Below, one piece after another: positions 1,682 to 51,289 of a stretch of 54,924 nucleotides of DNA. The translations under genes were made by a program, and so were the position numbers. Position 1 is the first letter of the stretch, and each line of letters opens with the position of its first letter. This DNA is from Candidatus Limnocylindria bacterium (lineage in GTDB: Bacteria; Chloroflexota; Limnocylindria; P2-11E). The DNA is taken from the NCBI GenBank assembly GCA_036555955.1, contig DATBKH010000170.1, positions 1-54,924 on the forward strand, read 5' to 3'. The notes under the pieces are model-generated. The model saw only the letters and a program-made list of their open reading frames with translations, ran no database searches and was not told where the DNA came from.

Positions 1682-4600
1682 TTAGCGGGCCGAGATCGGC
1701 GAGGGTGGCGCGAGCAGGCGCTCGACGCCGCGACGGTCGGTCGTCGCGCCCAGTTCCGCGAAGATCGTTACGGCTTCGCGAACGAGCGCGAGGTCGTCGC
1801 CTTCGAGCCGGCCCGCCGTGGCGTGCACTTGAGCGAGCGCGGCGAGGCTCCGGGCGAGCTCCAAACGGTTCTGAGCGAGCCTGAGAATGCTCACGCTCTC
1901 TGTAAGCTCGGCGGCCGCCTGGGTCCGCATCCCCAGCGCGTGGTGCACGGTACCCAGTACTTGGAGCGCCACGCCCTCCTCGTCGCGCGCTTTGATCTCC
2001 CGCGCCACGTCGAGCGATCGCAGCGCCCAGCCGAGCGCGACGGCCGGCTCCTTCGCGAGTTCGACCTTCGCGAGCGTTCGATATAGCTCGGGCAGGAACA
2101 GCCGCGAGTCGAGCTTCTCCCACTCGGCGAGCGCGCTCCCCAGCGAAGTGCGCGCTTCGTCGAGGTGACCGTCTTCGTAGTGGAGGATGCCGAGGTTCAT
2201 ATGGACCGTCGCCACGCCGACGGCGTTCCCGACCTGCGACCAGCTCTGCAGCGCTTCTTCCGACGCCGCGATCGCACCTGGGTAGTCGCGGCGATTTCGA
2301 AGGGTCTCGGCCAGATTTGCTTGCGTCATGCCGACGCCCCACAGGTCTCCGATGCGCCGTGCGAGCGTCAGCGCCTGCCGCTGCTCCTCCAGCGCTTCGT
2401 CCCAGCGCGATTGTCGGCGGAAGACGATGCCGAGGTTGTTGCGAACGTTCATCAGTCCCTGCGGATCGTCGAGCGACTCGTAGATCGAGAGCGCGCGGCG
2501 ATACAGATCCACGCCTCGCGCGTGATCGCCCTTGAGCACGCTAGCCGTACCGAGGTGTTTGTACCCCTCCGCAACGAGCTGGCGTGACCCTGCGGCGTCC
2601 GCCATGCCAACGCCGCGCTCACCGGCGACGAGCGCGTCGTCATAGCGGCCCTGGCGCCAGGCCACGTGAGCCAGCTCGATCCACACCGCGGCGGTGTCCG
2701 CATGTACGAGGTCGCCCGCGCTCGCGCCGGCACGCTCGAGCCAGCGGAGGGCGAGCTGGTAGTCGCCCTCGCGCTGATAGGTGACGGCCACCTTGCGTTC
2801 CAAGCGAGATTTCACGATCGCCGCAGCCGCAAGGTCATACGCTTCCCGGTACGAGTCGCGGGCCCGGGGCAGCTGGCCGATCGTCGTCCGCACGTCGCCG
2901 ATGCCTTCGAGTGCCGCTGCCCTTTGCGTATCGTCGGGCGCGAGCGCCAGTGCCGATTCGTACGCGCGGACGGCCTGATCGTTGGCGTACAGGCGCTGCG
3001 CGCGCGCGCCGGCTATGAGCAGATACCGGCACGCGCTGGCGCGGTCGTCGCTTCGCTCGTAGTGATACGCGAGAAAGTCCACGAACTCGTCGAGCCGCTC
3101 CGTATAGAGCGCTTCCATCGCGGCCGCGATCGATCCGTGCAGCCGCCGCCGGTCCGCCTGCAGCTGCGTCTCGTACGCGACCTCTTGGATCAGGATCTGC
3201 CGGAATCCGTAGGTGACCTCCGGCGACACGGTCTGGAGATCGACGAAGCTCCCGTGTTCGAGCGTCACGAGATGCTCGGCAAGGGCGACGTCGGGAAGGA
3301 GTCTTTCGAGAACGCGGACCCAGAAGGTCCGCCCGCACACGGCCCCGGCGTTCAGCGTCCGTCGCGTATCGAGCGAAAGCCGATCGATGCGCGCCTCGAT
3401 GAGTTCCTGAATCGTCGCGGGCACCGGCGCGGTCGCGCCCGGTACGAGCGCGACCCGACCCTTCCGTTCGATGAGGAGCGTCGATGCCTTCAACGCACGT
3501 ACCACCTCCTCAATGAAGAAAGGATTTCCCGCGGTGCGCCCGATGATCGTCTCGGCGAGCTGGTCCTCGACGGGAACCTCGAACACGGTCTCGATCAGGT
3601 CTCTCGCCGCGGCTCCCTCGAGCGCGCGGATCGCGAGCGTTTCGGTCTGCCACGGCGGCGTCCATCCTGGGCGCGCCGTCGTCGTGAAGAGAAGCGGCAG
3701 CGACGGAATGACCGTCACGAGATCGCCAAGGACGCGCAGGCTCGCGCCGTCGACCCAGTGCAGGTCCTCCGCGGTGAGCACCAGCGGCGCGCGGCGAGCC
3801 GCTAGCGTGAGCAGCGTCCGCAGCAAGGTGACGAGGATGCGTGGCTTGACCTCGGGGTCGAGCGGCGAGCGCACCCCGTAGCCGAGGATGTCGAGGAGCA
3901 GATCCGCGTGCGTCGACTCGAGCTCGGCGCCGAGAGCCGCGAATCCAGTCGTGATCGCCGTTCGCGCCACCGTCTCGTCGTCGGCCGCGTGAATGGAAAA
4001 GGCTCCGCGGATGAAATCCGCGATCAGCGCGTACGGAGTGTTCGTCTCGAACGAGGCGCACCGGACCGTGAGCCGGTCGATGCCCGAGACGAGGTTCGCG
4101 CGGAGCTCGCCGACGAGGCGTGACTTTCCAATGCCGGCCTCGCCAACGACGTTCACGACCCGCCCGCGGCCCTGCACCGCGTCCGCGACCGCGGCGCGGA
4201 GGAACTCGAGCTCGGCGTCGCGACCGATGAAGTGCGTCGATTCCGGGGCGATCTCGTCGTAGCGGCGACGGATGACGCGGTAGCCGACCACGCGCTCCGC
4301 CTTGCCCTTCAGGGTGAGCGGCGCGGTCTCCTCGAACTCGAATGAATGGATGGCGAGCCGTCTCGTGTCGGCGCTCACGAGGACCTCGCCGGGCGGCGCG
4401 GCGGACTCGAATCGCTGCGCCGTGTTCACCGCGTCGCCGACCACCGTGAACGCGGTCTGGACGTCGCCGGCCAGCAATCCGGCGACCACCTCGCCGGTGT
4501 TGATGCCGATGCGCAGCGAGAGCCGCACGCCGTGACGTCGCGACAGATCGTCGTTCAGGTGCCCGATCGACTGCTGCATGGCGAGGGCGGCGTTGATGGC

Positions 4601-4996
4601 GCGCTCGGCGTCGTCCTCGTGTGAGATCGGCGCGCCGAACACCGCCATGACCGCGTCGCCGATGTACTTGTCGATCGTCCCCTCGTAGCGGCGTATCTGA
4701 CGGGCCAGCTCGTTGAAGTAGGAACCGAGGATCCCGCGGAGCTCCTCGGGGTCAAGGCGCTCGCCGAGCGCCGTCGAACCGGAAAGGTCCGCGAAGAGGA
4801 TCGTCACGACCTTGCGCTGCTCGCCGAATGCCGCGGCCGCGACCGAGTCGACCTGCAGCGAGGTGCTCGTCGTCGCGAGCGACTGCGCGCGCGTGACCGA
4901 TACGTCCAGCGCCGCGCCGCACGACGAGCAGAAACGGTCGCGTGCGCGGGCGGCCGCGCCGCAGTTCGCGCAACGGCGTTTTACGGCTGGCGGCAT
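1682..4996 (-). CDS. Zinc-ribbon / class III adenylate(guanylate) cyclase / P-loop STAND ATPase / TPR protein (paralog 1)
   Basis: N-terminal CANCG...CSSCG zinc ribbon. Cyclase motifs ILFADLSGST, DKYIGDAVMAVFGAP and GDAVNTAQR. Walker A GEAGIGKS. About 450 aa of C-terminal TPR-like helical repeats. Confidence 0.9.
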   Translation of the reverse strand: MPPAVKRRCANCGAAARARDRFCSSCGAALDVSVTRAQSLATTSTSLQVDSVAAAAFGEQRKVVTILFADLSGSTALGERLDPEELRGILGSYFNELARQIRRYEGTIDKYIGDAVMAVFGAPISHEDDAERAINAALAMQQSIGHLNDDLSRRHGVRLSLRIGINTGEVVAGLLAGDVQTAFTVVGDAVNTAQRFESAAPPGEVLVSADTRRLAIHSFEFEETAPLTLKGKAERVVGYRVIRRRYDEIAPESTHFIGRDAELEFLRAAVADAVQGRGRVVNVVGEAGIGKSRLVGELRANLVSGIDRLTVRCASFETNTPYALIADFIRGAFSIHAADDETVARTAITTGFAALGAELESTHADLLLDILGYGVRSPLDPEVKPRILVTLLRTLLTLAARRAPLVLTAEDLHWVDGASLRVLGDLVTVIPSLPLLFTTTARPGWTPPWQTETLAIRALEGAAARDLIETVFEVPVEDQLAETIIGRTAGNPFFIEEVVRALKASTLLIERKGRVALVPGATAPVPATIQELIEARIDRLSLDTRRTLNAGAVCGRTFWVRVLERLLPDVALAEHLVTLEHGSFVDLQTVSPEVTYGFRQILIQEVAYETQLQADRRRLHGSIAAAMEALYTERLDEFVDFLAYHYERSDDRASACRYLLIAGARAQRLYANDQAVRAYESALALAPDDTQRAAALEGIGDVRTTIGQLPRARDSYREAYDLAAAAIVKSRLERKVAVTYQREGDYQLALRWLERAGASAGDLVHADTAAVWIELAHVAWRQGRYDDALVAGERGVGMADAAGSRQLVAEGYKHLGTASVLKGDHARGVDLYRRALSIYESLDDPQGLMNVRNNLGIVFRRQSRWDEALEEQRQALTLARRIGDLWGVGMTQANLAETLRNRRDYPGAIAASEEALQSWSQVGNAVGVATVHMNLGILHYEDGHLDEARTSLGSALAEWEKLDSRLFLPELYRTLAKVELAKEPAVALGWALRSLDVAREIKARDEEGVALQVLGTVHHALGMRTQAAAELTESVSILRLAQNRLELARSLAALAQVHATAGRLEGDDLALVREAVTIFAELGATTDRRGVERLLAPPSPISAR

Positions 4997-5094
4997 GCGG
5001 CCAGCCTACGAGTCGCGGCAAGTCTCGGGTGTAACGAACCGAACGATGGGTTTGCGTCTGCGGGCGAAGCCGGCTCCTCGTAACCTTCGGCGCC

Positions 5095-7242
5095 ATGACC
5101 GTCGAGACCGCCGACATCTGGGGGTTGCTGCGCGACAAGCTCGACTACGCCTCGTTCGTCCCGACGCCCCTGCCGGACATCGAGCGCGCCGACCTGCGGC
5201 GGCGCGATGGCACTCCCTACACCGTTATCAAGAATCCGCACGGCGACAACGGCGCCGGCCGTTACCTTCGCCTGGAGCCCGCCGACGTCGCGCTCATGCA
5301 GCTGATGGACGGGCGGCGGACCGTGCAGGAGATCCTCGTCGCGAACCTCGAGAACGGCGGCGGCTTCGCGCTCGAGAGGCTCGCTCGCTTGACCGCCGCG
5401 ATGCGCACGAATGGGTTCTTCGGCGAGGAGCCGCCGCCGCTCTACGAGAAGCTTCGCGCCATGGCGGCGCGCCGCGACCCGATGGCGCAGGCGTCGATCC
5501 TGTTGCGCCGCCTCGTCCTTTGGGACATCGCCCGCTGGTCGAACGCGGACCGCTTCGTCGACCGGGCGTACCGGACAGTGGGGTGGCTGGCGTTCACGCG
5601 CATCGGCGCCGCGCTCCTCGTCGTCTTCGGGCTCGCGGGTCTGGTGCTCTGGTTCGAGGAGACGAAGATCCCCACGCTGCAGCTCGTCACGCTGAACGGC
5701 TCGTACACCCTGGGCCTGCTCGCGCTGACTCTCCTGCAGGTCCTCTCGATCTCGATACACGAGGCCGGGCATGCTCTGGCGATACGGCATTTCGGCCGAC
5801 GCGTCCGGCGCTTCGGTCTGGCGATGTATTACCTCTTTCCCTGCTGCTACGTGGACTCGACGGACATGAGCCTTTCGTCGCGATGGAAGCGCGTCATCGT
5901 TTCGCTCGCCGGGCCGTTCGCGGGTCTCGTCGTCGCGGCGGCCTGCGCGGTCGTGGCGTGGTTCTCGCCGCACACGCTGCTCGGCGAGTTCGCGTTCAAG
6001 GGCGCGAGCCTCCTCGTGTTCCAGTTCGTGCTGAACCTCTTACCCATCCTCGAGCTCGACGGTTATCACGTGCTGGTCGACGCGCTCGACGCGCCACTGC
6101 TCCGACAGCGTGCGCTCGCGTTCGCGCGTGGCCAGGTCGTCCGGAAGATCCGGCAGCGCGCGAAGTGGACGCGTGAAGAGATCGGCCTCGCGCTGTTCGG
6201 TGGATTCGCGATCGTCATCTCGCTCGCGACGCTGTTCCTCTCGCTCGTGATCTGGCGGTCGCGCATCGAGGTCGCGGCGCGGGAGCTGATCCGTCTGGGC
6301 TGGCCGGGGCTCCTGATCCTCGCGCTGATCGCGCTCGTGTTCATCGGTCCGCTCGCGGTGGCGCTCGCCGCACGGGCCCTCGGGACGGCTCGCCTCGCGG
6401 CGAGGCTGGCCGCCGCGCGGAGCGCGCGGGTCGCCCAGCTCGAGCTCGAGGAGCGGGTCAACGTCCTCTCGCGGGTGCGCTTCCTCGCGGGCCTTCCGCG
6501 CCAGTCGCTCCTGGTGATGGCGTCGCATCAGGAGATCGAGCGCTTCCAAGCCGGAGACATCGTCTTCACCGCCGGCGATGCCGGGGACCGGTTCTATCTG
6601 GTCCGGTCCGGTCGCCTTCGCGCGACCGGCGCCGACGGCACGGTCTTCGGGACGATCGTGCCGGGTGAAGGCTTCGGCGAGCTCGCGCTGCTCGATCACA
6701 CCGTGCGTTCCGCGACGGTCCAGGCGATCGAGCCGGTGGAGGTCTGGTCGCTGCGGCGCGGCCACTTCAATCGCTGGGTTCGCGAGCGGTACGAGGTCGC
6801 GGCCCGCATCCGTGCCTCGCGAGGCGAGCGGAACGCCCTCTCCTCGCTTCCGTTCTTCAAGGGGCTGAGTGGCCAGGAGCTCGACCGGATCGCGGCGCGC
6901 ATGCGGACCATTCGGTATGGCGACCGCCAGCCGGTGTTCCTCGCGGGGGATCCCGGGGACCGCTACTACGTCATCCGCGAAGGCAAGGCGCTGGTGACGC
7001 TCCCCGACGGGCGCCCGATCAGGACGCTCGGGCCGGGCGACGCCTTCGGCGAGCTCGCCCTCCTGTTCCGGAAGCCGCGCACGGCGACCGTTACAGCGGT
7101 CGGCACGCTCGTCGTGGCGGCTTTGGAGCGGGTCGACTTCCTAGCTTTGGTGAAGGCTTCCGGAGAAAAAGAGGGTGCGTTCCGCGCGAGAACGGGCCAT
7201 TATGTCGGCGCTGGTCTGGGGGAGGCCATTGCGGGGAGCTAG
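5095..7242 (+). CDS. Membrane protein: PqqD-like (RRE-like) domain + M50 site-2-protease core + two cyclic-nucleotide-binding domains
   Basis: Residues ~45-110 (LRLEPADVALMQLMDGRRTVQEILVANL...LERLARLTAAMRTNGFF) resemble the PqqD winged helix. The multi-TM core carries HEAGH (nt 5758-5772) and NLLPILELDG (nt 6034-6063). The C-terminus has two cNMP domains with FGELAL..RSATV and FGELALL..RTATV cassettes. Confidence 0.85.
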   Translation: MTVETADIWGLLRDKLDYASFVPTPLPDIERADLRRRDGTPYTVIKNPHGDNGAGRYLRLEPADVALMQLMDGRRTVQEILVANLENGGGFALERLARLTAAMRTNGFFGEEPPPLYEKLRAMAARRDPMAQASILLRRLVLWDIARWSNADRFVDRAYRTVGWLAFTRIGAALLVVFGLAGLVLWFEETKIPTLQLVTLNGSYTLGLLALTLLQVLSISIHEAGHALAIRHFGRRVRRFGLAMYYLFPCCYVDSTDMSLSSRWKRVIVSLAGPFAGLVVAAACAVVAWFSPHTLLGEFAFKGASLLVFQFVLNLLPILELDGYHVLVDALDAPLLRQRALAFARGQVVRKIRQRAKWTREEIGLALFGGFAIVISLATLFLSLVIWRSRIEVAARELIRLGWPGLLILALIALVFIGPLAVALAARALGTARLAARLAAARSARVAQLELEERVNVLSRVRFLAGLPRQSLLVMASHQEIERFQAGDIVFTAGDAGDRFYLVRSGRLRATGADGTVFGTIVPGEGFGELALLDHTVRSATVQAIEPVEVWSLRRGHFNRWVRERYEVAARIRASRGERNALSSLPFFKGLSGQELDRIAARMRTIRYGDRQPVFLAGDPGDRYYVIREGKALVTLPDGRPIRTLGPGDAFGELALLFRKPRTATVTAVGTLVVAALERVDFLALVKASGEKEGAFRARTGHYVGAGLGEAIAGS

Positions 7243-7245
7243 GGA

Positions 7246-7461
7246 TTGGATTGCTGGGTCTGCGAAAGGACCGCGCTTGCCGCGTGCCGCTTCTGCGGGC
7301 GCGGGACCTGTCGCGAGCACTCCCGGAATCACCCGTTCGTTCTCGAGCTCTTCCGTGGCAACCGTCACGACGTCATCAGGGCGCTAGTGGTCGAAGACGC
7401 GATCCACTGCGGGGTCTGCCGCCCGCGTGGTGAACCGGTGCAGATGCCGGAGCTCGAGTAG
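7246..7461 (+). CDS. 71-aa Cys-rich zinc-finger mini-protein (B-box-like spacing)
   Basis: TTG start lies 7 nt after RBS GGGGAG (7233-7238), which sits in the last codons of the upstream gene (stop TAG 7240-7242). Pattern CxxC-x7-CxxC-x4-CxxH (CWVC..CRFC..CREH) plus a C-terminal HCGVC. Confidence 0.6.
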   Translation: MDCWVCERTALAACRFCGRGTCREHSRNHPFVLELFRGNRHDVIRALVVEDAIHCGVCRPRGEPVQMPELE

Positions 7462-7589
7462 GCACGAGCTGCGGAGGGAGGGCGAAGGTTAGGTAGATCA
7501 CACGGACCGAGTGACACGGGGCGACGAGCCGCAGCACCCGAGCGGCGCAGAGTCACCGCCTACCGATAGCGGTGAAAAAGGAGCAGGTA

Positions 7590-8792
7590 ATGAGCAAGAA
7601 CCTCGAGAAAGTGATCCAGCGGGCGATCAGTGACGCGGCATTCCGCCGTCAGCTCCAGTCGAACCCCGAAGCGGCGCTACGCGGCTTCAACCTCACGGGT
7701 GACGAGGTTGCCGCACTCCGCAGCGGAGACGCCGGGAAGCTGATGTCCCTCGGCATCGACCAGCGCATGAGCAAGACATTCCAGGTCGGCGGCGAGTCCT
7801 TCTCAAGCATGGCCAGCCGCGCGGCCATCGGTGGCGACCTGACCACGACGAGCGGGTCGCTCATCGACCAGGACACCGGCCGTCTCGCGGCCGCGGACAC
7901 CATCGGCGCGACGAGCGGAAGCACCGCCTCGATCGACCCCGGCAACGTCGACGGCACCCCGCGCGCTTTCGGCGACCCGCTGAGCACGGCGACGGCGGCG
8001 TCCGACGCGCTCGAGGACCAGAGCCACGCGATCGCGGGCCGTCAGATGGGCGACGCCACCGGCACCGTCCGGAGCTCCGTCCGCGACTTCGAGCCGGCCG
8101 CGCAGATCGGCACGAGCGACTACAGCTCGGCGTACCCCGCCCATGGCGGCCTGGCAGGCCCAAGCGGCACGAACCTGAGCGCCGGCAACGTCGCTCCGGT
8201 CGAGGGCAGCCCCGAGGCGTTCGCATTCCGCGACCAGGGCGAGACCGCGGTCCGCAGCAACGTTCGCGACTTCGAGCCCGCTGCCGGATCCGCGCCGACA
8301 TCCGACGCGATCGAGGACCAGAGTCACGCGATCGCCGGCCGGCTGGCTGGTGAGACCGCGGTCCGCAGCAACGTTCGGGACTTCGAGCCCGCCGCGCAGC
8401 TCAGCAACAGCGAAGTGGCGAGCGATGAGGGCCAGGTCATCTCGCGGATCCGCGACAACGCTCCCGCGGACGTTGGCTCTTCGGCGACGATCAGCGGTGA
8501 CGACGCGGCAGGCCCCGGCTATCTCGCCGCCTCGGACGACATGACCATCTCACGCGTTCGCGACATCGCGCCCGCCGACACGATGGGCTCGGACGTCGCG
8601 GCGAGCTCCGCGGCGACCTCGGACGCGTTCCTCACGGAGGGCGAGGTCAGCCAGTACGCAGCGACCGACCCGAACTGGAGCTCGGACGCGGCGGAGGACA
8701 CGAGCCACGCGTTCAACCCGGACGTCAGCGACGCGGCCGTGGACGGCGGGACCGACTCGACCGCCAACCACGACTCGGAGCTCACGAGCTAA
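7590..8792 (+). CDS. Acidic tandem-repeat protein with an NHLP/Nif11/LigA-like helical N-terminal leader ending in Gly-Gly
   Basis: ATG 7590 is 6 nt after AAGGAG (7578-7583); the track ORF starts at GTG 7572. The N-terminus MSKNLEKVIQRAISDAAFRRQLQSNPEAALRGFNLTGDEVAALRSGD...TFQVGG resembles RiPP-type leaders. The rest is S/T/A/D/E-rich with repeated SDA[LI]EDQSHAIAGR and VRS.VRDFEPAA units. No signal peptide or TM segment. Confidence 0.7.
   Translation: MSKNLEKVIQRAISDAAFRRQLQSNPEAALRGFNLTGDEVAALRSGDAGKLMSLGIDQRMSKTFQVGGESFSSMASRAAIGGDLTTTSGSLIDQDTGRLAAADTIGATSGSTASIDPGNVDGTPRAFGDPLSTATAASDALEDQSHAIAGRQMGDATGTVRSSVRDFEPAAQIGTSDYSSAYPAHGGLAGPSGTNLSAGNVAPVEGSPEAFAFRDQGETAVRSNVRDFEPAAGSAPTSDAIEDQSHAIAGRLAGETAVRSNVRDFEPAAQLSNSEVASDEGQVISRIRDNAPADVGSSATISGDDAAGPGYLAASDDMTISRVRDIAPADTMGSDVAASSAATSDAFLTEGEVSQYAATDPNWSSDAAEDTSHAFNPDVSDAAVDGGTDSTANHDSELTS
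8001..8396 (+). repeat. Near-identical intragenic DNA repeats encoding the repeated peptide modules
   Basis: Unit A, tccgacgcg(c/a)tcgaggaccagag(c/t)cacgcgatcgc(g/c)ggcc, occurs at 8001 and 8301 (exactly 300 nt apart, 37/40 identical). Unit B, gagaccgcggtccgcagcaacgttcg(c/g)gacttcgagcccgc, occurs at 8241 and 8352 (111 nt apart, 1 mismatch in 41). A diverged copy lies at about 8064-8105. Confidence 0.85.
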
Positions 8793-8811
8793 CAGGGCAC
8801 ACACGAGGGGC

Positions 8812-8850
8812 GAAGGAGCGGCTCCGCGAGGGGCCGCTTCTTTCGTTTCT
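8812..8850 (+). terminator. Intrinsic-terminator-like hairpin between the convergent repeat-protein and Crp genes
   Basis: GAAGGAGCGGC (8812-8822), a ~10-nt loop, then GCCGCTTCTTT (8833-8843), giving about 10 bp including G-U pairs. It runs into the T-rich tract CTTTCGTTTCT. No U-tract on the opposite strand. Confidence 0.5.
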
Positions 8851-9520
8851 AATAGCGGATGTCGCCGCGCAGCAGCTCTCGATCGACGAGCTCGATGTGG
8901 CGGCGCCCCAGACGGATCGCCTTCCGGTGCTCGAGGTCCGCGAGGACCCTGTTCACCGACACGCGGGCGGCGCCGACGAACCCGGCGATGTCCTCCTGGG
9001 TGAGCTCGACGCTGTCCGAGCCTGACGCGTCCGCGATGTCGAGGAGGCACTTCGCGACACGGCCGGGGAGGTCGAGGAACACGAGGTCCTCGACGTGTCC
9101 GGTGCTGCGGCGGACGGTCTTCGCAAGGAGGCCGAGCATGCGTTTCATCGCATCGGGGTTTCGCTCGAGCACCGCCATGAAGTCCGCACGCCCGAGCGCC
9201 AGCGCCGACGTCTCGGTCACCGCCGTGACCGTCGCCGAACGCTGAGCGTCGTCGAAGAGCGCGAGCTCGCCGAACACGTCGCCGCCTCGCTCGAGCGCGA
9301 TGACGACCTCGCGGCCCGCCTCGTCGGGCACGGAGACCTTCACCGTGCCGGCCATGATGAGAAAGACCTGACCGGCCTCGTCGTCGCGGTGAAAGATGAC
9401 CTCGTCCCGGCCGAAATGACGTGGGCGCATGCGCGCCGCGAGCGCGAGGCGGTCATTCGCACCGAGCGCGGCGAAGAGGGGGTGCTCCACGAGGTAGTCG
9501 GCGATCCGCGAGGCGTCCAC
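8849..9520 (-). CDS. Crp/Fnr-family transcriptional regulator (cNMP-binding domain + HTH)
   Basis: cNMP cassette GDVFGELALFDDAQRSATVTAV. C-terminal HTH LTQEDIAGFVGAARVSVNRVLADLE. Confidence 0.9.
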   Translation of the reverse strand: MDASRIADYLVEHPLFAALGANDRLALAARMRPRHFGRDEVIFHRDDEAGQVFLIMAGTVKVSVPDEAGREVVIALERGGDVFGELALFDDAQRSATVTAVTETSALALGRADFMAVLERNPDAMKRMLGLLAKTVRRSTGHVEDLVFLDLPGRVAKCLLDIADASGSDSVELTQEDIAGFVGAARVSVNRVLADLEHRKAIRLGRRHIELVDRELLRGDIRY

Positions 9521-9749
9521 CGGCGGTGATTTTGTGCTCTGCGTCCAAATGGCGCCCTTCGCGCGTCCTGGGTCTGTGCGCTCCGGGGCCCTCGCGGCGC
9601 TCCTTCTCGCAAGGGCCTGTGGCGTCCCGGCCGGCGGCGGCCCAGCGACGCCGCCGATATCACAATCGGTGTCGGCGACGCCCTCGGCCTGGCCGCCCTG
9701 ACCGATCGGGATTCGCGGCTCGCGAGCGGAGGCCGTAGTTTGCTCGGAG

Positions 9750-10916
9750 ATGGCAGAGTTTCCCGGCGCCGCGCTGCCGCTCCTCTTCTACGCGGACGGA
9801 TACAAGTTCCCCGACGTCTATCACGCGACGCGTTTCCTCGCGCCGGACCCGATCATCGCCCTCGAGGGGGTCGAGGAGCTCGTGCTGGCCGTGAGCTCGC
9901 TCGAGGAGGGCCGCGCTCGTAAAGAGTCACGGGCCACCGAGATCATCAACATCAACGCGCTCGGAGCGCAGGAGCTGACCGCGCGCGGCGTCGTCGGCAC
10001 CGAGCTCACCGCCGCGCTCATCAAGCGGCTCCTCGACGATCGCGGCGTGCGCCACGTCGCCGTCCCTTCGTACTTCCCGCTCGGGCTCGGAGACCGGCTC
10101 CGCGCGCTCGGGATCGAGCTCCGCATCGCCACGAACATGAGCGAGCGCAGGCGCACGAAGCGACCGGACGAGATCGAGGCCATCGAAGCCGCGCAACGGG
10201 CGACGGAGGAGGCCTGGCAGCGCGGCGTCGACGCGCTGCGGCGCGCGAGTGTCGAACGAGACAAGACGCTCACGCTGGACGGCGCGACACTCACGGCCGA
10301 GCGCCTCCGCGCGATCGTCGAGTCGGCGCTGCTCGAGCGCGGTTACGCGTCCGATGGCGCGATCATCGCGCCCGGTCCGCAGGGCGCGAATCCGCACGAG
10401 ATCGGGACCGGCCCGCTGCACGCGAACGAGCCGATCGTCATGGACATCTTCCCGCAGCACAAGACGAACCGGTACTGGTCGGACATGACACGCACGGTCT
10501 CGAAAGGCGAACCCGCCCCCGCGATCCGGAAGATGTACGACGTCGTCATGAAGGCGCAGGACGCGGGCATCGCAGCGCTCCGCCCGGGCGTGACCGGCCG
10601 CGAGGTGCACGAGCTCGTCGAGGACGTCATCTTCGCCGCGGGCTACGACACGCTCCGGCCGGGCCAGAAGCGCGACCCCGGCGACGCCACGCCACGCGGC
10701 TTCATCCACGGGACCGGACACGGCGTCGGTCTCGAGATCCACGAGCCACCCGATGTGAACCGCGCGGGGAAAGCGCTCAAGGAGGGCGACGTCGTGACGG
10801 TCGAGCCCGGGATCTACGACCCGGCGATCGGCGGCGTGCGCCTCGAGGACATCCTGGTCATCACGCGCGACGGCGCCCGCGACCTCACGCGGGCCCCGCG
10901 CGAGCTCATCGTCTAG
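9750..10916 (+). CDS. M24-family Xaa-Pro aminopeptidase/dipeptidase
   Basis: Creatinase-like N-terminal domain and pita-bread motifs DMTRT and HGTGHGVGLEIHEPP, then VEPGIY...GGVRLED. Confidence 0.9.
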   Translation: MAEFPGAALPLLFYADGYKFPDVYHATRFLAPDPIIALEGVEELVLAVSSLEEGRARKESRATEIININALGAQELTARGVVGTELTAALIKRLLDDRGVRHVAVPSYFPLGLGDRLRALGIELRIATNMSERRRTKRPDEIEAIEAAQRATEEAWQRGVDALRRASVERDKTLTLDGATLTAERLRAIVESALLERGYASDGAIIAPGPQGANPHEIGTGPLHANEPIVMDIFPQHKTNRYWSDMTRTVSKGEPAPAIRKMYDVVMKAQDAGIAALRPGVTGREVHELVEDVIFAAGYDTLRPGQKRDPGDATPRGFIHGTGHGVGLEIHEPPDVNRAGKALKEGDVVTVEPGIYDPAIGGVRLEDILVITRDGARDLTRAPRELIV

Positions 10917-10954: not shown

Positions 10955-11782
10955 GTGGTCTGGGGATTCGCCGACTACGCGGCCGGGCTCTGCGCGCGCC
11001 GCGTCGGCGCTGTGCGCACCGCGTTCGCCATGCAGGCGACCGGCCTGACCTCGTTCGCGCTCGTCACCTGGCTCCTCGGACGATGGCCCGCCTTCGAGCC
11101 GGGCATGGTGCCGTTCGCGCTCGCGCTGGGCGTCCTGGGCGTCGTCGCGGTGGCGGCGCTCTATCGCGGGCTCGCGCTCGGCCCGGTCGCCGTCGTCGCG
11201 CCGGTCGTCGCCTCCTACGTCGTGATCACCGTGATCCTCGTCGTGATCTTCCTCGGCGAGCGGTTGTCGATCGCGCAGATCGTCGCGGCGTCCGTGGTCT
11301 TCGTCGGAGTCGTGCTCACGTCGACGGACGCGCGCGAGCTGCGCGTGACGCTCGGACGGCCCGTCCCCGGCGTGCGCATCGGTCTGGTCGCGACCCTCGG
11401 ATTCGGGCTGTGGAGCGCGGTCTTCGCCATCGCGACCCGCCAGTACGACTGGATCCCGATGATCCTGCTCCTGCGCGCGACGAGCTTCGTCTTCATCGGC
11501 TCGTTCATCGCCGCGCGGCGCATCGACCTCCGCGTGTTCCGCGCGAGGGTCGCCCTCCTGCTCGGCACGATCGTGGGCGTGCTCGACACGCTCGCGAACG
11601 TCTTCTTCGCTCTCGGCATCGAGTCGGGCTACGCGTCGCTCGCCGCGACCGGAACGGGCATGTACCCGATAGTGCCGGCGGTGCTGGGAATGCTCGCGCT
11701 GGGCGAGCGGCTCGCGCCGAATCAGCTCGCGGGGATCGTGCTGCTGGTCGTCGGCCTCGCGGCGCTCGGTGCGGTGAGCTAA
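10955..11782 (+). CDS. EamA/DMT-family transporter
   Basis: Highly hydrophobic, about 9-10 TM segments, EamA-like VVWGFADY start. The true start may be the in-frame CTG at 10922 (LEALLLGVAAAVVWG), because GTG 10955 truncates the first helix. Confidence 0.75.
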   Translation: MVWGFADYAAGLCARRVGAVRTAFAMQATGLTSFALVTWLLGRWPAFEPGMVPFALALGVLGVVAVAALYRGLALGPVAVVAPVVASYVVITVILVVIFLGERLSIAQIVAASVVFVGVVLTSTDARELRVTLGRPVPGVRIGLVATLGFGLWSAVFAIATRQYDWIPMILLLRATSFVFIGSFIAARRIDLRVFRARVALLLGTIVGVLDTLANVFFALGIESGYASLAATGTGMYPIVPAVLGMLALGERLAPNQLAGIVLLVVGLAALGAVS

Positions 11783-13143
11783 GCGGCGAGGAGCAGCGCC
11801 GGCGCGACGCTGGAGCGTGCGACCTTCGTCCGGAGGTACGCGACCGCCGCGTCGAGCTGCGGATCGCCCTGCGCGCCGGTTGGCTGATCGACGATCTGGT
11901 CGGGCACGATGCCGCGGCCGGGACCGTTCAGGTCCTCGCCGGTCTTGGCGTCCTGGATCTTCGTGATCGTCACGAGAAGAAGTCCCCCGTCCGGCAGATC
12001 GCGCGGCTGGCCGGTCCCGACGCATCCCGCGGTCTGTGAGCCCATGACGAGACCGGCGCCGTTCGCGCGGATCCCAGCGGCGATGATCTCCGCTCCGGAC
12101 GCCGAGCTCTTGTTCACGAGGACCACGAGCGGCTTGTTGCTGTCGATGTAGAAGCGGCGGTTCACGTCGAGCGGAGTGCGGTTGCCGTCGCGGCCCGTCT
12201 GGTACACGAGCGTGCCCTGCCGGACGAAGATGCTCGCGATGTCGACCGCGGCGGAGAGATCTCCACCCGGATCGCCGCGCAGGTCGAGCACGAGCGCCTC
12301 GGCGCCGTTCGCATCGAGCCGCTTCACCGCGTTGGAGACCTCGTCGGCGACCGCGCCCACGAGCTGCGGGACCTCGATGCGGCCGATGTTGCCGTCGATG
12401 ATCGACTCGGTCTCCAGGGGCACCGAGAAGCGCGCCCGGTTCATCGTCAGCGACAGCGTGTCGGAGCCGCGCAGGATGCCGATCGTCACGCTCGTGCCCT
12501 CCGGACCCTTCACCTTCGTCGCCACCTCGTCCGTCTGGAGCTTGGTGACGTCGACGCCGTCGACGGTCACGATCTTGTCGCCGGCCTTCACGCCCGCGCG
12601 CTGCGCCGGCGTGTTCGGGATCACTCGCACGACCTCGATGGGGTCGTCCACGCCCGGCTTGCTGATGGTGACGCCGATCCCCGAGACCGGTGGCTGGGGC
12701 TGGTTGAAGGTCTTGGCCCGGGAGGGGTCGAGGTAGTAGGTGTGGCACTCGTTCATGGAGCGCGCCATGCCGTCCACGGCGGCCCGCTCGAGGGCCGTCT
12801 TGTCGGCGTTCGGCGTCGCGCTGACGATGGCGTCGAGGCGGTCGGAGAACTTCGCGAAGTCGGACCAGGTGCTGCCGGTGAGCGCCAGGTCGCCCGACGG
12901 GAGCGCGCCGTCCGAGGCGCCTTCCTTCTTCGCTTCGGTCACCACGCTGGCGAGCGCGCCGGTCAGAAGCACCTTCGAGGTGGGCTTGTCCACGTGCCGC
13001 TCGATGAGGACCTGGTAGGCGGCCTCCGCGGTCTTGTACGCGGTGTTGGAGGGGAGGAGCTCCCGCTGCAGCTCCGCCGGAACGAGCGAGCATGCCGCCG
13101 CGACGAACGCGACCAAGGGAAGAAGAGAGCGGAGGCGGATCAC
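11779..13143 (-). CDS. S41 C-terminal-processing peptidase lipoprotein with PDZ domain
   Basis: GTG start at 13143 gives (M)IRLRSLLPLVAFVAAAC, a lipobox signal. PDZ segment VVRVIPNTPAQRAGVKAGDKIVTVDG. S41 motifs LVLDLRGDPGG and NKSSASGAEI. The track ORF extension to 13515 is Arg-rich and judged an artefact. Confidence 0.85.
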   Translation of the reverse strand: MIRLRSLLPLVAFVAAACSLVPAELQRELLPSNTAYKTAEAAYQVLIERHVDKPTSKVLLTGALASVVTEAKKEGASDGALPSGDLALTGSTWSDFAKFSDRLDAIVSATPNADKTALERAAVDGMARSMNECHTYYLDPSRAKTFNQPQPPVSGIGVTISKPGVDDPIEVVRVIPNTPAQRAGVKAGDKIVTVDGVDVTKLQTDEVATKVKGPEGTSVTIGILRGSDTLSLTMNRARFSVPLETESIIDGNIGRIEVPQLVGAVADEVSNAVKRLDANGAEALVLDLRGDPGGDLSAAVDIASIFVRQGTLVYQTGRDGNRTPLDVNRRFYIDSNKPLVVLVNKSSASGAEIIAAGIRANGAGLVMGSQTAGCVGTGQPRDLPDGGLLLVTITKIQDAKTGEDLNGPGRGIVPDQIVDQPTGAQGDPQLDAAVAYLRTKVARSSVAPALLLAA

Positions 13144-13187
13144 GAGATACCTATCGAGCAGTCTACGGGCCCACCCCCGGAGCGGGT

Positions 13188-13814
13188 TCAGGCCACTTCG
13201 CTCGTTAAGAGCTTTCTTAAGCGACCGAGCGCTCGGAACTGCAATGCGCGGATGGCGCCCTCGTTCTTTCCGAGGACCTGCGCGACTTGACGGCTCGACA
13301 TGTTCTCGACGAAGCGGAGGACGATGACCTCCTGCTGCTCGGTGGTGAGGTGCTTCACCGCGCCGCGCAGCGCGTCGACCGCCTCGCCGTGCACCGCGCG
13401 ATCGTGCGCGCTCGGTCCGTCCTCGGCGACGCCGTACGCGTTGTCGAGATCGACGGTCGGGCGATCGCGACGCCGGCGGTCGGTCACCGCGTTGCGCGCG
13501 ATCGTGTAGAGCCACGCGAGGAAGGACTTGCCCTGCCAGCGATAGCGATGGATGTTCGCGAAAGCGCGCGTGAATACCTCGCTCGCGAGGTCCTCCGCAT
13601 CCGAAGGCTCGCGGACGCGGTAGAGGAGGTAGCGGTACACGGAGTCGACGTGTCGGTCGTAGAGCTCGGCGAACGCCGTGCGGTCACCGGCCTTCGCGCG
13701 CGCGATCACGTCGGGTACCGGACCCACGACATCGAGCGAGAGCGCGGTGACTTTCGCGACGCTTGGCCGCAAGCGGTCGTCCCTTCCCTTCCTCACAGTG
13801 CGCAGGCCGACCAT
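13188..13814 (-). CDS. ECF (sigma-70 family) RNA polymerase sigma factor
   Basis: Region 2 FAELYDRHVDSVYRYLLYRV..DLASEVFTRAF. Region 4 LTTEQQEVIVLRFVENMSSRQVAQVLGKNEGAIRALQFRALGRLR. ATG at 13814 chosen; the GTG giving VTALSLD is an alternative. The upstream part of the track ORF is an artefact. Confidence 0.85.
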   Translation of the reverse strand: MVGLRTVRKGRDDRLRPSVAKVTALSLDVVGPVPDVIARAKAGDRTAFAELYDRHVDSVYRYLLYRVREPSDAEDLASEVFTRAFANIHRYRWQGKSFLAWLYTIARNAVTDRRRRDRPTVDLDNAYGVAEDGPSAHDRAVHGEAVDALRGAVKHLTTEQQEVIVLRFVENMSSRQVAQVLGKNEGAIRALQFRALGRLRKLLTSEVA

Positions 13815-13947: not shown

Positions 13948-15060
13948 CTACCCGCCGGCGATCTTCTGCTTGAGGATCTCGATCGCTTTGTCGACGGCCG
14001 TCGCATCGTCCGACTGCACGTCCGGCGGGATGCCTTTGTTGTTGTAGCGGCTTCCGCTGACCGCGCCGACGACCTCCTGCGTGACGATCGAGAAGAGCGC
14101 GTTGTCCGGCGCGCGGAACTCGTCGGCGCCACCGACGCAGCCGGTGGTCGTCGATCCCACGAGCGTCATCCGCTTTCCCTCTTTCAGATCGAGGATGAAA
14201 TGCTCCGACCCGGACGCGGTGCGGTCGTTCGCGATGATCACCATCGGCAGCTGGTACGCGGCGGGCAGCCGAAGGTCCTTGTTCGCCGTGGCGGTGCCGC
14301 CGTTCCCGTTCTTCAGCAACACGGTCCGCGTCGGCTCGCCGTTCAGGAAGAAGCTCGAGATGTCGACGGGGAAGCCGCCGAGATTGCCGCGGAGATCGAT
14401 GAGCCACGCCTTCGCGCCTTGCGCGAGCGCCTTGTCGAGGATCGACCGTAGCGCGTCGTTCAGGCGGTACGTGCCGGTGTTGATCCAGGCGTGGAACGTG
14501 ATGTAGGCGATGCCGTCGGGAAGCATCTTCCCGGTCATGCCCGCTTCGTCGGGACCGCCGAGGCTCGTTCCCTGCGACGGGACCATCGCCTGGCTGCCCT
14601 TCGGCGTGTAGGCGAGCGAGTGGAAGACGCTGCCGCTCGCCGTCACGTAGTAGGTGTGGCAATCGGGACTTGCCGCGAGCATTCCCGTGATCGCGGCGTC
14701 GGCGATCTGGTCGGCGGAGAGATCCGCGCGGCTCGCGAGCTGTGAGACCGCGTCGGCGAACTTGTTGAAGTCGGCGGTCTGCGGCGAGTCCGTGTCCTGG
14801 AATTCGGGCGTGCCCACGTCGTCCTTGCCACCGGCCTTGCGGACCGCGGCGCGAACGCCATCGAGAGCGGCCTCCAGCGCTTTCTTGCTGGTGACATGGT
14901 GAAGATCGTCGTCTACGAATCCGCTGTACGCGATGTCCAGCTTCGTCCGTTTGATGTCGGCGGTCTTCGAGGGGGATTGAGAGGCCGAGCCGGTCGGCCC
15001 CGGCGTGCACGCCGCGAGCACGAGCGTCGCCGTGACGATGAGCATGAGCGCGCGGCGCAT
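13948..15060 (-). CDS. S41-like peptidase lipoprotein (no obvious PDZ), paralog of 11779-13143
   Basis: Lipoprotein signal MRRALMLIVTATLVLAAC. S41 motifs WLIDLRGNLGGF and NDRTASGSEHF. Shares the CHTYY motif with the neighbouring S41 protein. Confidence 0.8.
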   Translation of the reverse strand: MRRALMLIVTATLVLAACTPGPTGSASQSPSKTADIKRTKLDIAYSGFVDDDLHHVTSKKALEAALDGVRAAVRKAGGKDDVGTPEFQDTDSPQTADFNKFADAVSQLASRADLSADQIADAAITGMLAASPDCHTYYVTASGSVFHSLAYTPKGSQAMVPSQGTSLGGPDEAGMTGKMLPDGIAYITFHAWINTGTYRLNDALRSILDKALAQGAKAWLIDLRGNLGGFPVDISSFFLNGEPTRTVLLKNGNGGTATANKDLRLPAAYQLPMVIIANDRTASGSEHFILDLKEGKRMTLVGSTTTGCVGGADEFRAPDNALFSIVTQEVVGAVSGSRYNNKGIPPDVQSDDATAVDKAIEILKQKIAGG

Positions 15061-15078: not shown

Positions 15079-16287
15079 CTAGTCGGCGGGAGTGCCCACC
15101 TTCACGGCCTGATGCTGCGCGCGCCACTCGCTCGGTGAGGCGCAGAAGCCCTCGTAGTCGATGTAGTCGGTGATCGTCGGGTGCTCTCCGCAGACCGGGC
15201 ACTCGGGGTCGCGGCGCAGCCGGACCTCGCGAAAGCTTCCCTCGAGCGCGTCATACAGGAGGTAACGGCCGACGAGGGGCTCGCCGATCCCGAGGAGCAG
15301 CTTGATGGCTTCGGTCGCCTGGATCGTGCCGATCACGCCCGGCAGCACACCCAGCACGCCTGCCTCCGCACAGGAGGGCGCGAGCTCGGGCGGCGGCGGC
15401 TCGGGGAAGAGGCAGCGGTAGCACGGTCCGTCGAACGGCTTGAAGATCGTGACCTGGCCCTCGAAGCGGTAGATCGACCCGTGCACGACGGGGATGCGGT
15501 GCTTGATCGACGCGTCGTTCAGGAGATAGCGCGTCGGGAAGTTATCGGCGCCGTCCACGACGACGTCGTACCCCGCGATGATGCGATCGATGTTCGCCGC
15601 CGAGAGGCGCTCCTCGTAGCCGACGATCTTCACCTCGGGGTTGAGGGCTTCGAGCGTCTCCTTCGCTGAGGACACCTTCGGCTCGCCGATGCGGTCGGTC
15701 GAATGCAGGATCTGCCGCTGGAGGTTCGTGAGGTCGACGACGTCCGAGTCGACGATGCCGATCGTCCCCACGCCGGCGGATGCGAGGTAATACGCCGCCG
15801 GCGATCCGAGACCGCCCGCTCCGATGAGCAGCACCTTGCTCTGCATGAGCTTGTGCTGTCCGGCCTCGCCGACCTCGGGGATGAGCAGATGGCGCGAGTA
15901 GCGCTGCGCCTGGTCCGGCGTGAAGCTCGCCGGCTGGGTCCAGGGCTTCCCCGAATCCTTCCACCGGTTGAATCCGCCGGTCATCGAGATGACGTTCGTG
16001 TATCCGAGCTTCGCGAGCGTGTCCGCGGCCATGGCGGAGCGAACACCGGCGGCGCAGTACAGGACGGTGGTCTTGTCCTTCTCCGGAAGCCGGTCCTCGG
16101 CCCACTGCTCGAGGTAGCTCTTGGGGACGTGGACCGCGCCCGGGATGTGACCGGTGTTCCATTCGTCCTTCTCGCGCACGTCGCCGAGCTGTATCTCGCC
16201 GCGCGCCATCAGGTCCTGGACCTGCTCCGGCGTGGCTTCCTGGATGCGCTTTCTGACGTCGGCGAAGTAGTCGCGGTAGGTCGGCAT
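15079..16287 (-). CDS. Rhodanese-ThiF/MoeB adenylyltransferase-sulfurtransferase with the rhodanese domain at the N-terminus
   Basis: N-terminal rhodanese with active-site loop CAAGVRS. ThiF/MoeB core LLIGAGGLGSPAAYYLASAGVGTIGIVDSDVVDLTNLQRQ. Zinc cysteines CYRC and CPVC. Confidence 0.9.
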   Translation of the reverse strand: MPTYRDYFADVRKRIQEATPEQVQDLMARGEIQLGDVREKDEWNTGHIPGAVHVPKSYLEQWAEDRLPEKDKTTVLYCAAGVRSAMAADTLAKLGYTNVISMTGGFNRWKDSGKPWTQPASFTPDQAQRYSRHLLIPEVGEAGQHKLMQSKVLLIGAGGLGSPAAYYLASAGVGTIGIVDSDVVDLTNLQRQILHSTDRIGEPKVSSAKETLEALNPEVKIVGYEERLSAANIDRIIAGYDVVVDGADNFPTRYLLNDASIKHRIPVVHGSIYRFEGQVTIFKPFDGPCYRCLFPEPPPPELAPSCAEAGVLGVLPGVIGTIQATEAIKLLLGIGEPLVGRYLLYDALEGSFREVRLRRDPECPVCGEHPTITDYIDYEGFCASPSEWRAQHQAVKVGTPAD

Positions 16288-51279: not shown

Positions 51280-51289
51280 GAGCGCGGTG

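Follow-up and report, generated by a model that had tools for sequence, protein, structure and literature searches.

A predicted cyclic-nucleotide-binding site-2 protease with a zinc-finger partner beside a leader-bearing protein in Candidatus Limnocylindria

A class III cyclase, an M50-family membrane protease with two cyclic-nucleotide-binding (CNB) domains, a 71-amino-acid (aa) mini-protein, a 400-aa protein with a peptide-type leader and a Crp-family regulator are encoded side by side in Candidatus Limnocylindria bacterium, a soil member of the Chloroflexota, and the question raised by this locus is what such a set of genes does together. The window analysed is the whole stretch of 54,924 nucleotides (nt) of contig DATBKH010000170.1 (about 55 kb, G+C about 69%). 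In the reading favoured here, to which a probability of about 0.5 is given, the locus is a cyclic AMP (cAMP)-responsive module for peptide or protein maturation built around a leader peptidase, in which a recognition element (RRE) of RiPPs (peptides synthesised on ribosomes and modified after translation) is joined to a site-2 protease (S2P). A single processing unit linked to cyclic nucleoside monophosphates (cNMPs) had been proposed in an original prediction for this DNA; it was corrected in four points and is partly supported, by conserved linkage, a leader of the NHLP clan, an RRE-like domain and RiPP clusters elsewhere. The elements of the locus, with the evidence for each in brackets, are as follows.

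1682..4996 (-): zinc-ribbon/class III cyclase/AAA_16 (STAND)/TPR protein, 1104 aa (Pfam, alignment to solved cyclases)
4997..5094: divergent intergenic region between the cyclase gene and the M50 fusion gene, 98 bp (read from the sequence)
5095..7242 (+): RRE-like/M50 site-2-protease/tandem CNB fusion, 715 aa (Pfam, NF041824, AlphaFold2 (AF2), Foldseek)
5170..5409 (+): RRE-like (PqqD-like) domain of the fusion, residues about 26-105 (AF2 topology, family profile, Pfam in relatives)
5588..6384 (+): M50 membrane core, residues about 165-430 (family alignment and AF2)
6478..7194 (+): two CNB domains, residues about 462-575 and 585-700 (Pfam, conserved columns, fold like that of the protein kinase A regulatory subunit (PKA-R))
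7246..7461 (+): mini-protein, 71 aa, predicted eight-ligand cross-brace zinc finger (conserved Cys/His, adjacency, AF2)
7487..7502 (+): Crp-type box GGTTAGGTAGATCACA, preceding the leader-protein start by about 100 nt (cross-locus comparison)
7590..7775 (+): leader domain of the Os1348/Frankia_peptide type (LigA/NHLP clan), residues 1-62, ending in IDQRMSK (NF038399, structure 6LK7)
7776..8792 (+): acidic low-complexity tail without Lys or Cys, 338 residues (composition, shared k-mers)
8812..8843: terminator-like hairpin separating the convergent genes for the leader protein and Crp (14-pair stem, T-rich tail)
8849..9520 (-): Crp/Fnr-family regulator, 223 aa (Pfam cNMP_binding, HTH_Crp_2 and Crp)

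The five linked genes first proposed are all real, each open reading frame (ORF) being present at the coordinates and on the strand given for it, and the hairpin terminator shared by the convergent genes was also found. Profile hidden Markov model (HMM) annotation of the five proteins recovered the cyclase, M50 plus CNB, NHLP-clan leader and Crp families.

The M50-CNB protease and its zinc-finger partner

The protease contains an M50 core (PF02163, 53.8 bits against a cutoff of 27.2) and two cNMP-binding domains (PF00027, 140 bits), both above the Pfam cutoffs, as had been claimed for this one protein. The M50 motifs HEAGH at residues 222-226 (H222/E223/H226) and NLLPILELDG at residues 314-323 (N314, P317, D322, G323) are both placed in long helices by AF2, and HExxH and NxxPxxxxDG are kept across 27 family members at 26-56% identity; by sequence and model, the protein qualifies as a predicted M50/site-2 protease. 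The phosphate-binding cassettes of the CNB pair, FGELALL..RSA and FGELALL..PRTA (GFGELALLDHTVRSA and AFGELALLFRKPRTA), lie in columns (FGE, R and [ST]A) that are conserved in the alignment of the 27 members, and canonical cassettes are present in all three CNB domains of the locus (two in the protease and one in Crp). The pair is classed with the cyclic-nucleotide-binding domains on sequence and model, and ligand binding is predicted.

The AF2 model of the protease (mean predicted local distance difference test score (pLDDT) 76.7) contains six long hydrophobic helices, a beta-hairpin at 239-253, a highly basic helix at 336-354 and two beta-barrel domains. A topology of six transmembrane (TM) segments with both termini in the cytoplasm is predicted, and the N-domain and the CNBs would therefore share the cytoplasmic face. 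Residues of about 450-700 were aligned by Foldseek with the tandem CNB of PKA-R (E 1.7e-21, about 240 residues aligned, 25-31% identity).

The N-domain is RRE-like by lines of evidence that converge but are individually weak, and it may dock a leader. It was modelled as strands 30-35, 41-47 and 56-60 followed by helices 62-70, 77-88 and 93-105. The NF041824 model of the daptide RRE-peptidase aligned with residues 53-420 (136.5 bits, E 1e-39; cutoff 300), and a family profile of the N-domain found only 14 matches in the Protein Data Bank (PDB), including PaaA (E 0.0085), TfuB1 (0.18) and PqqD (0.39). Among relatives, Pfam PqqD was matched in the domain-permuted protein P0225 (1e-5) and in 2 of the 27 family members. 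The original label of PqqD-like is thus supported in part, by this beta3-alpha3 topology, the below-cutoff NF041824 match, the profile matches and the PqqD matches in homologs, but not by any Pfam match in the window protein.

An exhaustive HMMER search with the protease gave 647 representative clusters at E<1e-30, many of which share the N-domain/M50/2xCNB layout at a length of 700-750 aa and 30-37% identity; the 44,594 matches at E<=0.001 arose mostly via the CNB domains. A profile search of a 5.8-billion-protein set gave matches only from the same Limnocylindria clade. Among the variant architectures of the family (P0133, P0149, P0225, P0129 and similar proteins), some carry an N-terminal FHA domain or a C-terminal AhpC/TSA domain, and an AhpC-like gene is also a frequent neighbour of actinobacterial modules. 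A variant with the permuted order CNB-CNB-PqqD-M50 and a class of about 1,100 aa, with an unannotated insert of about 400 residues between M50 and the CNBs, were also observed.

The mini-protein gene begins with a TTG codon 3 nt past the M50 stop codon and is likely to be translationally coupled to the M50 gene. In homologous loci the mini-protein is 76-79% identical and the protease only 67-68%; better conserved than the protease, the mini-protein is therefore taken to be the product of a real gene, one that is often missed or shortened by gene callers and whose homologs (131 clusters) are all named 'hypothetical'. Residues C3, C14, C17, C22, H25, C55 and C58 are invariant and C6 is nearly so; with these eight ligands (seven Cys and one His), two zinc ions would therefore be bound. 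In the AF2 model (pLDDT 81), N-terminal knuckles, a long beta-hairpin and an acidic C-terminal tail are formed, and the protein is soluble, with no TM segment. Foldseek gave no significant match in the PDB, the best being cross-brace fingers at E>0.5, and Pfam matches were sub-threshold (C5HCH, 23.3 against 26.3 bits; DUF2180, 19.9 against 22.2 bits). The term B-box-like, originally applied to this protein, is fair for the ligand spacing (C-x2-C-x7-C-x2-C-x4-C-x2-H...C-x2-C), which resembles B-box1 by eye only. As a family assignment it was dropped, with neither a Pfam zf-B_box match nor a B-box fold found, and the protein is described as an unclassified cross-brace zinc finger. The mini domain was fused to the protease in none of 345 family proteins, and the mini-protein is an obligate partner of the M50-CNB protease.

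The leader-bearing protein, the cyclase and the Crp regulator

Residues 3-61 of the 400-aa protein matched NF038399 ('Os1348 family NHLP clan protein') at 68 bits, above the curated cutoff of 40, in keeping with the NHLP-like leader that had been proposed. By sequence, the leader also matched the Os1348 crystal structure 6LK7 (E 1.4e-5) and SonA RiPP precursors. For PF14407 (Frankia_peptide) the window leader scored 35.6 bits, below the cutoff of 48, and orthologs carry precomputed PF14407 matches. The narrower proposal, a leader of classical NHLP or Nif11 type ending in GG, was given up. TIGR03793 gave 16.6 bits against a cutoff of 50.9, Nif11 was not matched, and no C39 exporter was found in the window. 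The GG at residues 67-68 in the window is present in only a subset of orthologs and is absent from loci L093 and L102-L105. All 38 collected leader-bearing ORFs close the leader domain with (L/V)D(E/Q)R(L/M/V)SK, and the conserved leader boundary, as judged by sequence, is DxRxSK rather than GG. Past the SK motif, about 5-20 residues follow in other Chloroflexota as against 185-477 in Limnocylindria.

The leader proteins of Limnocylindria are 248-539 aa long. In 15 orthologs (L001, L003, L084-L105 and the window), the tails contain no Cys and 4-6% Arg in most, Lys is at 0.0% in 13 of the 15, and the net charge is -18 to -47 across orthologs. By k-mer comparison of the 15 orthologs, the motifs SDAxEDQSHAxA, VRDFEPAA and FAFRDQG were found to be common to them, with 2-4 copies of the recurrent motifs per protein; in the window tail, ISRxRDxAPAD recurs along with the first two. 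Tandem Repeats Finder detected no DNA-level repeat array in the tail gene, only a 12-nt doublet, and at the level of sequence the tail repeats are read as diverged peptide motifs. An extra 119-aa acidic ORF without a Pfam match lies between the mini-protein and leader-protein genes in L104 (12488-12847).

The Pfam domains of the cyclase protein (Zn-ribbon 6-30; Guanylate_cyc 61-234, E 3e-30; AAA_16 256-437; TPRs at about 740-1000) agree with the zinc-ribbon/class III cyclase/STAND/TPR architecture first described. The class III domain (PF00211, 105.7 bits) has its best matches among solved cyclases in the adenylate cyclases CyaB and Cya2/IlaC. In alignment with these, the metal-binding Asp residues in FADLSG and IGDAVM and the Asn and Arg in VNTAQR are kept, and Thr is found in FTVVG, the same as in CyaB. 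The adenine-specifying Lys is present in TIDKYIGD, at which the Cya2 guanylate cyclase has Glu and its engineered adenylate version has Lys. Because the metal Asp pair, the Lys, the CyaB-type Thr and the Asn/Arg pair are intact, the protein is most likely an active adenylate cyclase.

Two more cyclase-AAA_16(-TPR) STAND paralogs are encoded in the window at 22043-25429 (-) and 51287-54277 (+), making three in all, and the source genome is unusually rich in this architecture. Within Limnocylindria, 16 loci include at least 3 kb of DNA upstream of the module, and in 12 of these a cyclase is encoded no more than about 6 kb upstream. The 332 kb of Limnocylindria DNA contain 22 cyclase ORFs, all but 3 of which are at this position; the loci of other clades contain 4 cyclase ORFs in 1,243 kb. 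The upstream cyclases are non-orthologous, with three unrelated types counted at this position, being of the STAND type in the window, L102 and L003, while response-regulator cyclases with GAF histidine kinases are found upstream in L001, L003, L103 and L104. The Dehalococcoidia module is adjoined by an FHA-cyclase. Since unrelated cyclase types are swapped at one position, function is favoured over inherited synteny.

The convergent regulator belongs to the Crp/Fnr family, as first stated, with cNMP_binding (PF00027, 78 bits), HTH_Crp_2 (PF13545, 59 bits) and Crp (PF00325, 34 bits) matches, and is 73-75% identical in homologous loci. A Crp-like box was found upstream of the leader-protein gene in 15 of the 15 Limnocylindria intergenic regions extracted and is perfect (TGTGATCAGGATCACA) in L103. 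About 45 nt upstream of the leader-protein start, an invariant GCGCAG(A/G) is shared by the window (7545-7589) and the orthologous 5' untranslated regions (UTRs). Directly 5' of the leader-gene Shine-Dalgarno sequence, a small hairpin shows apparent compensatory changes (CACCGC/GCGGTG in the window, CATCGTC/GACGATG in L093), for which RNAalifold support was weak (-0.98 kcal/mol); Rfam gave no match to the 5'-UTR hairpin or in a scan of 4900-9700. Neither a sigma-70-like promoter nor a Crp box at <=2 mismatches was found in the 98-bp region 4997..5094.

The conserved neighbourhood and competing explanations

Loci of relatives were gathered with a protease sub-alignment sharing PLLELDGY. A relative is encoded by 437 species-representative genomes, and 84 loci drawn from these hits, from at least 4 phyla, were examined. 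The mini-protein gene is present in 76 of the 84 loci, nearly always directly 3' of the protease gene (Chloroflexota, Actinomycetota and allies), and a Crp-HTH gene lies <=1.8 kb from the M50-CNB gene in 51 of the 84. The order of M50-CNB, mini-protein, leader protein and convergent Crp was found in 8/8 annotated contexts of Limnocylindria. Gene order is kept at 57-83% protein identity and across phyla, and the recurrence of the neighbourhood among homologs, on which the original prediction depended, is borne out by these counts. Single-linkage clusters of neighbour ORFs were blurred by spurious antisense ORFs owing to the high GC content, and few were interpretable.

Outside Limnocylindria, two M50-CNB/mini/precursor modules are present on the Anaerolineae contig L009 (8489-12148 and 14827-20127). 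The first consists of the mini-protein, a 78-aa precursor, a RimK-type ATP-grasp enzyme and M50-CNB, and the second of M50-CNB, the mini-protein, a 117-aa precursor and a RiPP radical S-adenosylmethionine (rSAM) C-methyltransferase (TIGR03975, 651 bits); both precursors belong to the Os1348 family (NF038399 above cutoff), with cores of about 13-30 residues past SK. In the Dehalococcoidia locus L107 (the same as L050; 876-10216), an FHA-cyclase and six ORFs of 60-66 aa accompany M50-CNB and the mini-protein, and five of the six small ORFs matched the leader HMM, with 5-6 residues past the motif (e.g. ...ERLSK-AMRWK). By sequence, these Anaerolineae and Dehalococcoidia loci are identified as real RiPP-type clusters. 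The small ORFs of L107 are interleaved with unannotated proteins of 196, 371 and 554 aa, and a hydrolase-Ser/Thr kinase fusion follows the mini-protein.

In Actinomycetota, a same-strand cassette of M50-CNB, mini-protein and Crp, in this order, was found with no precursor detected. It is often preceded by a protein of about 230 aa (L027-L083, e.g. L030 3824-4516) in which a signal peptide is combined with one C-terminal TM helix and the cytoplasmic tail (RRPPxRLSVYxxIQRRLD) is conserved; by its sequence, this protein is a candidate classical S2P substrate. In L106 (7772-11324), the cassette is inserted in the rimM/trmD operon, with a perfect Crp box and a 42-aa Lys-rich ORF.

The domain identities, the gene linkage and the membership of the protease/mini pair in RiPP clusters elsewhere are directly supported. 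From these we infer leader binding, the cleavage site, the cAMP dependence and the fate and function of the tail, according to the following scheme. The inner-membrane M50 protease would have three cytoplasmic parts, namely the N-terminal RRE, the basic juxtamembrane helix and the PKA-R-like CNB pair. The RRE would dock the folded Os1348-type leader of the 400-aa protein, the M50 site would cut at or near DxRxSK, freeing the acidic Lys-free tail from the leader, and the tandem CNBs would make the cut cAMP-dependent, by analogy with PKA-R and with CBS- and PDZ-gated S2Ps. The neighbouring class III adenylate-type cyclase would supply the cAMP, and Crp would sense the same cAMP and control leader-protein synthesis via the conserved upstream box; with a Crp box on the substrate gene and a CNB-gated protease, both production and processing would therefore need cAMP. 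The protease may have evolved as a peptidase of the daptide MpaP kind that gained a PKA-R-like sensor and a zinc-finger partner.

Taken together, the grouping of these genes suggests that a ribosomal peptide or protein may be cut under direct control by cAMP. Tentatively, and with less confidence than is placed in the maturation module as such, M50-CNB may be a site-2 protease switched directly by a cyclic nucleotide, the first such case, which with its zinc-finger partner would form a widespread cAMP-to-proteolysis module (at least 437 species) and in Limnocylindria would release a giant Lys-free polypeptide.

Several observations weigh against this scheme. Pfam PqqD has no match in the window protease at E<0.1, so that the RRE assignment rests on the other evidence given above, of which the NF041824 score is below its cutoff. 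The window Crp box has 2 mismatches and is not significant alone; a scan of the window with the Crp consensus gave 4 sites against 6.6 expected, which is not above chance, and the box is credible only because of the footprint at the same position across loci. With three cyclase paralogs in 55 kb, adjacency of a cyclase in the window alone is therefore weak, and the originally proposed link between cyclase and module convinces only when the whole clade is considered. Among the genes scanned in the window, neither a modifying enzyme (rSAM, YcaO, Lan or ATP-grasp) nor an exporter was found, and usual RiPP cores are all far smaller than the 338-residue tail; the window locus is therefore not a canonical RiPP cluster, as had already been noted for want of a modifying enzyme or C39 exporter, and the 400-aa protein may not be a natural-product precursor but a protein that undergoes processing. 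In the first survey of 84 loci, an Os1348-type leader was found next to only 13. Finally, with no recognisable precursor accompanying it, the actinobacterial trio may have a conserved function other than precursor processing.

This last point leads to the rival that survives best, which is considered unlikely but is to be taken seriously. M50-CNB, mini-protein and Crp would form a switch of cAMP-regulated proteolysis as the ancestral function of the trio, with the precursors, including the 400-aa protein, as clade-specific outputs or cargo; the protease could, for example, process or sequester the mini-protein, the single-pass membrane protein or Crp upon cAMP. The self-contained same-strand trio, with neither precursor nor tailoring enzyme detected in about 45 actinobacterial loci, the L106 cassette inside a housekeeping operon, the stronger conservation of the mini-protein than of the protease, and the FHA and AhpC fusions, which suggest signalling or redox contexts, are all in its favour. 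In 35 loci, moreover, the gene directly upstream encodes a conserved protein with a signal peptide and one TM helix that resembles a classical S2P substrate. The RRE-like domain, however, is kept family-wide, RREs being known as binders of peptide leaders, and in Chloroflexota the pair lies inside clusters with precursors and RiPP enzymes. The soluble mini-protein also has no TM segment of the kind normally cut by S2Ps.

Improbable, but next in order, is that the 400-aa protein is not a substrate of the protease at all and consists of an Os1348-like dimerisation or folding domain and a functional disordered tail, merely regulated by Crp and placed beside the protease through shared regulation, for which metal or mineral binding, a chaperone function or a matrix function could be suggested. 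Os1348, to which the window leader aligns, forms a stable homodimer in the crystal (PMC7726476); the orthologs keep short linear motifs and a strongly biased tail composition, as for a functional disordered protein, and no tailoring enzyme is present in the window. Against this stand the invariable position of the leader gene between the mini-protein and Crp genes in the 8/8 Limnocylindria contexts and, in other classes, short proteins with the same leader adjoining the same protease/mini pair. The sharp DxRxSK boundary followed by hypervariable sequence is also the pattern of a leader/core junction.

A multi-core RiPP precursor appears very improbable. According to this explanation, units of about 35 aa (SDAxEDQSHAxAG...VRDFEPAA) would be excised from the tail and modified by enzymes encoded elsewhere, with M50 removing only the leader. 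The motifs, at 2-4 per protein, are indeed common to orthologs, but the repeats are imperfect and not tandem at the DNA level, and no flanking recognition or cleavage motifs of the known multi-core type were found. Secreted peptidases nearby (S41 x2, S9, M24 and M20) could be cited in its support, yet they are not conserved beside the module in other Limnocylindria loci, except for M24 in L105. That unrelated genes came to lie together by chance, in a genome rich in cyclases and CNB domains, is effectively refuted: despite the three cyclase-AAA_16 paralogs in 55 kb and the commonness of CNB domains in these phyla, the gene order is conserved at 57-83% identity and across phyla, and cyclases are strongly enriched at the upstream position.

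The surroundings of the module in the window are rich in peptidases (108-1676, 9750-10916, 11779-13515, 13948-15060, 17683-20448 and 46738-48102), the genes encoding a PD40 beta-propeller, an M24, two S41 (one with PDZ), an S9 prolyl oligopeptidase with PD40 and an M20 protein. Only M24, together with an EamA gene, recurs beside Crp, in L105. The S41, S9, M24 and M20 peptidases were rejected as site-1 or processing partners for this lack of conservation. A rhodanese-ThiF (MoeZ-like) sulfur-carrier-activating enzyme is encoded at 15079-16287 (-), 5.5 kb downstream of Crp, and nothing was found that ties it to the module.

Relation to known systems and significance

The original statement that no S2P with an RRE had been described is outdated, the daptide peptidase MpaP being an RRE-S2P fusion with an established leader-peptidase mechanism (2023, PMC10036551; NCBIfam NF041824); for the CNB part of that statement, no description was found. 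MpaP has the same N-terminal RRE and M50 membrane core, and the proposed logic is alike, with docking of the leader by the RRE and its removal by the S2P. At 136 bits, however, the window protease is far below the 300-bit equivalog cutoff of NF041824 and is not a member of this family. The window also lacks precursors with an ELExMEAP leader and C-terminal Thr and the MpaB/C/D/M genes, whereas the two C-terminal CNBs and the zinc-finger partner have not been reported for MpaP.

Further M50 proteases of RiPP pathways (EpeP, TglG/TmoG and the TMcin protease) have been described (PMC10036551, PMC10885120, PMC13252029). EpeP/YydH, LiaK and TglG/TmoG are likewise membrane M50 enzymes for RiPP processing (PMC10885120), but they have no RRE or CNB, and the rSAM epimerases or PEARL enzymes of their clusters are absent from the window. 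The NF058609 match of the window protease to the YydH/LiaK group is weak and confined to the catalytic core (64.8 bits against a cutoff of 225), which places the protein outside that group.

Os1348, from Pseudomonas sp. Os17, is an antibiotic-related precursor 85 aa long (PDB 6LK7; PMC7726476), and the Frankia_peptide family of Pfam belongs to the LigA-like RiPP leader group (PMC12353581). The first 62 residues of the window protein belong to the same family as Os1348. The genes clustered with Os1348 are those for a GNAT protein, a gluzincin-like peptidase and a SagB-type protein, under Gac/Rsm control, whereas the window leader precedes a 338-aa acidic tail and is clustered with the M50-CNB protease, the zinc finger and Crp.

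In the S2Ps SpoIVFB (CBS) and RseP (PDZ), an appended domain probably regulates the access of substrates. They have in common with the window protease an M50 core to which a regulatory domain is attached, but the regulatory module of the latter is a PKA-R-like tandem CNB, and its candidate substrate is a soluble leader-bearing protein whereas theirs are membrane-anchored. PKA-R is the best structural match of the C-terminal half of the protease, with a nearly identical phosphate-binding cassette; it inhibits a separate kinase subunit, whereas the CNB pair of the window is covalently fused to the protease. In mycobacterial STAND proteins of the Rv0386 type, a class III cyclase, an AAA/NB-ARC-like ATPase and TPRs follow each other in this order. 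The window cyclase has the same domain order but differs in its N-terminal zinc ribbon, in having no LuxR-type HTH detected by Pfam at the C-terminus, and in its Lys/Thr substrate-specifying pair.

Full-text literature searches found no account of an M50 protease-cNMP-binding fusion, of the mini-protein family or of Os1348-type proteins of giant size, and the fusion to CNBs, the mini-protein as a partner and the giant Lys-free acidic 'precursor' appear to be undescribed. Direct cAMP gating of intramembrane proteolysis, if it occurs, would be a new principle. To our knowledge, control of RiPP maturation is described nearly always at the level of transcription; if the proposed reading is true, a cAMP-sensing leader peptidase would add a post-translational checkpoint to it, and cyclic nucleotides would join the short list of inputs that gate S2Ps (CBS/ATP, PDZ). 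The protease/mini pair is common in soil Chloroflexota and Actinomycetota, groups that are difficult to grow in culture and have many silent clusters, and if cAMP is the trigger, this could help to activate such clusters heterologously. The conserved 71-aa zinc finger represents a family of proteins that is without annotation but has a clear partner in the genome. The Lys-free acidic 'precursors' of 250-540 aa challenge the idea that leaders of the Os1348/NHLP type precede short cores only and, if the proposed reading holds, would extend the leader logic of RiPPs to protein-sized substrates.

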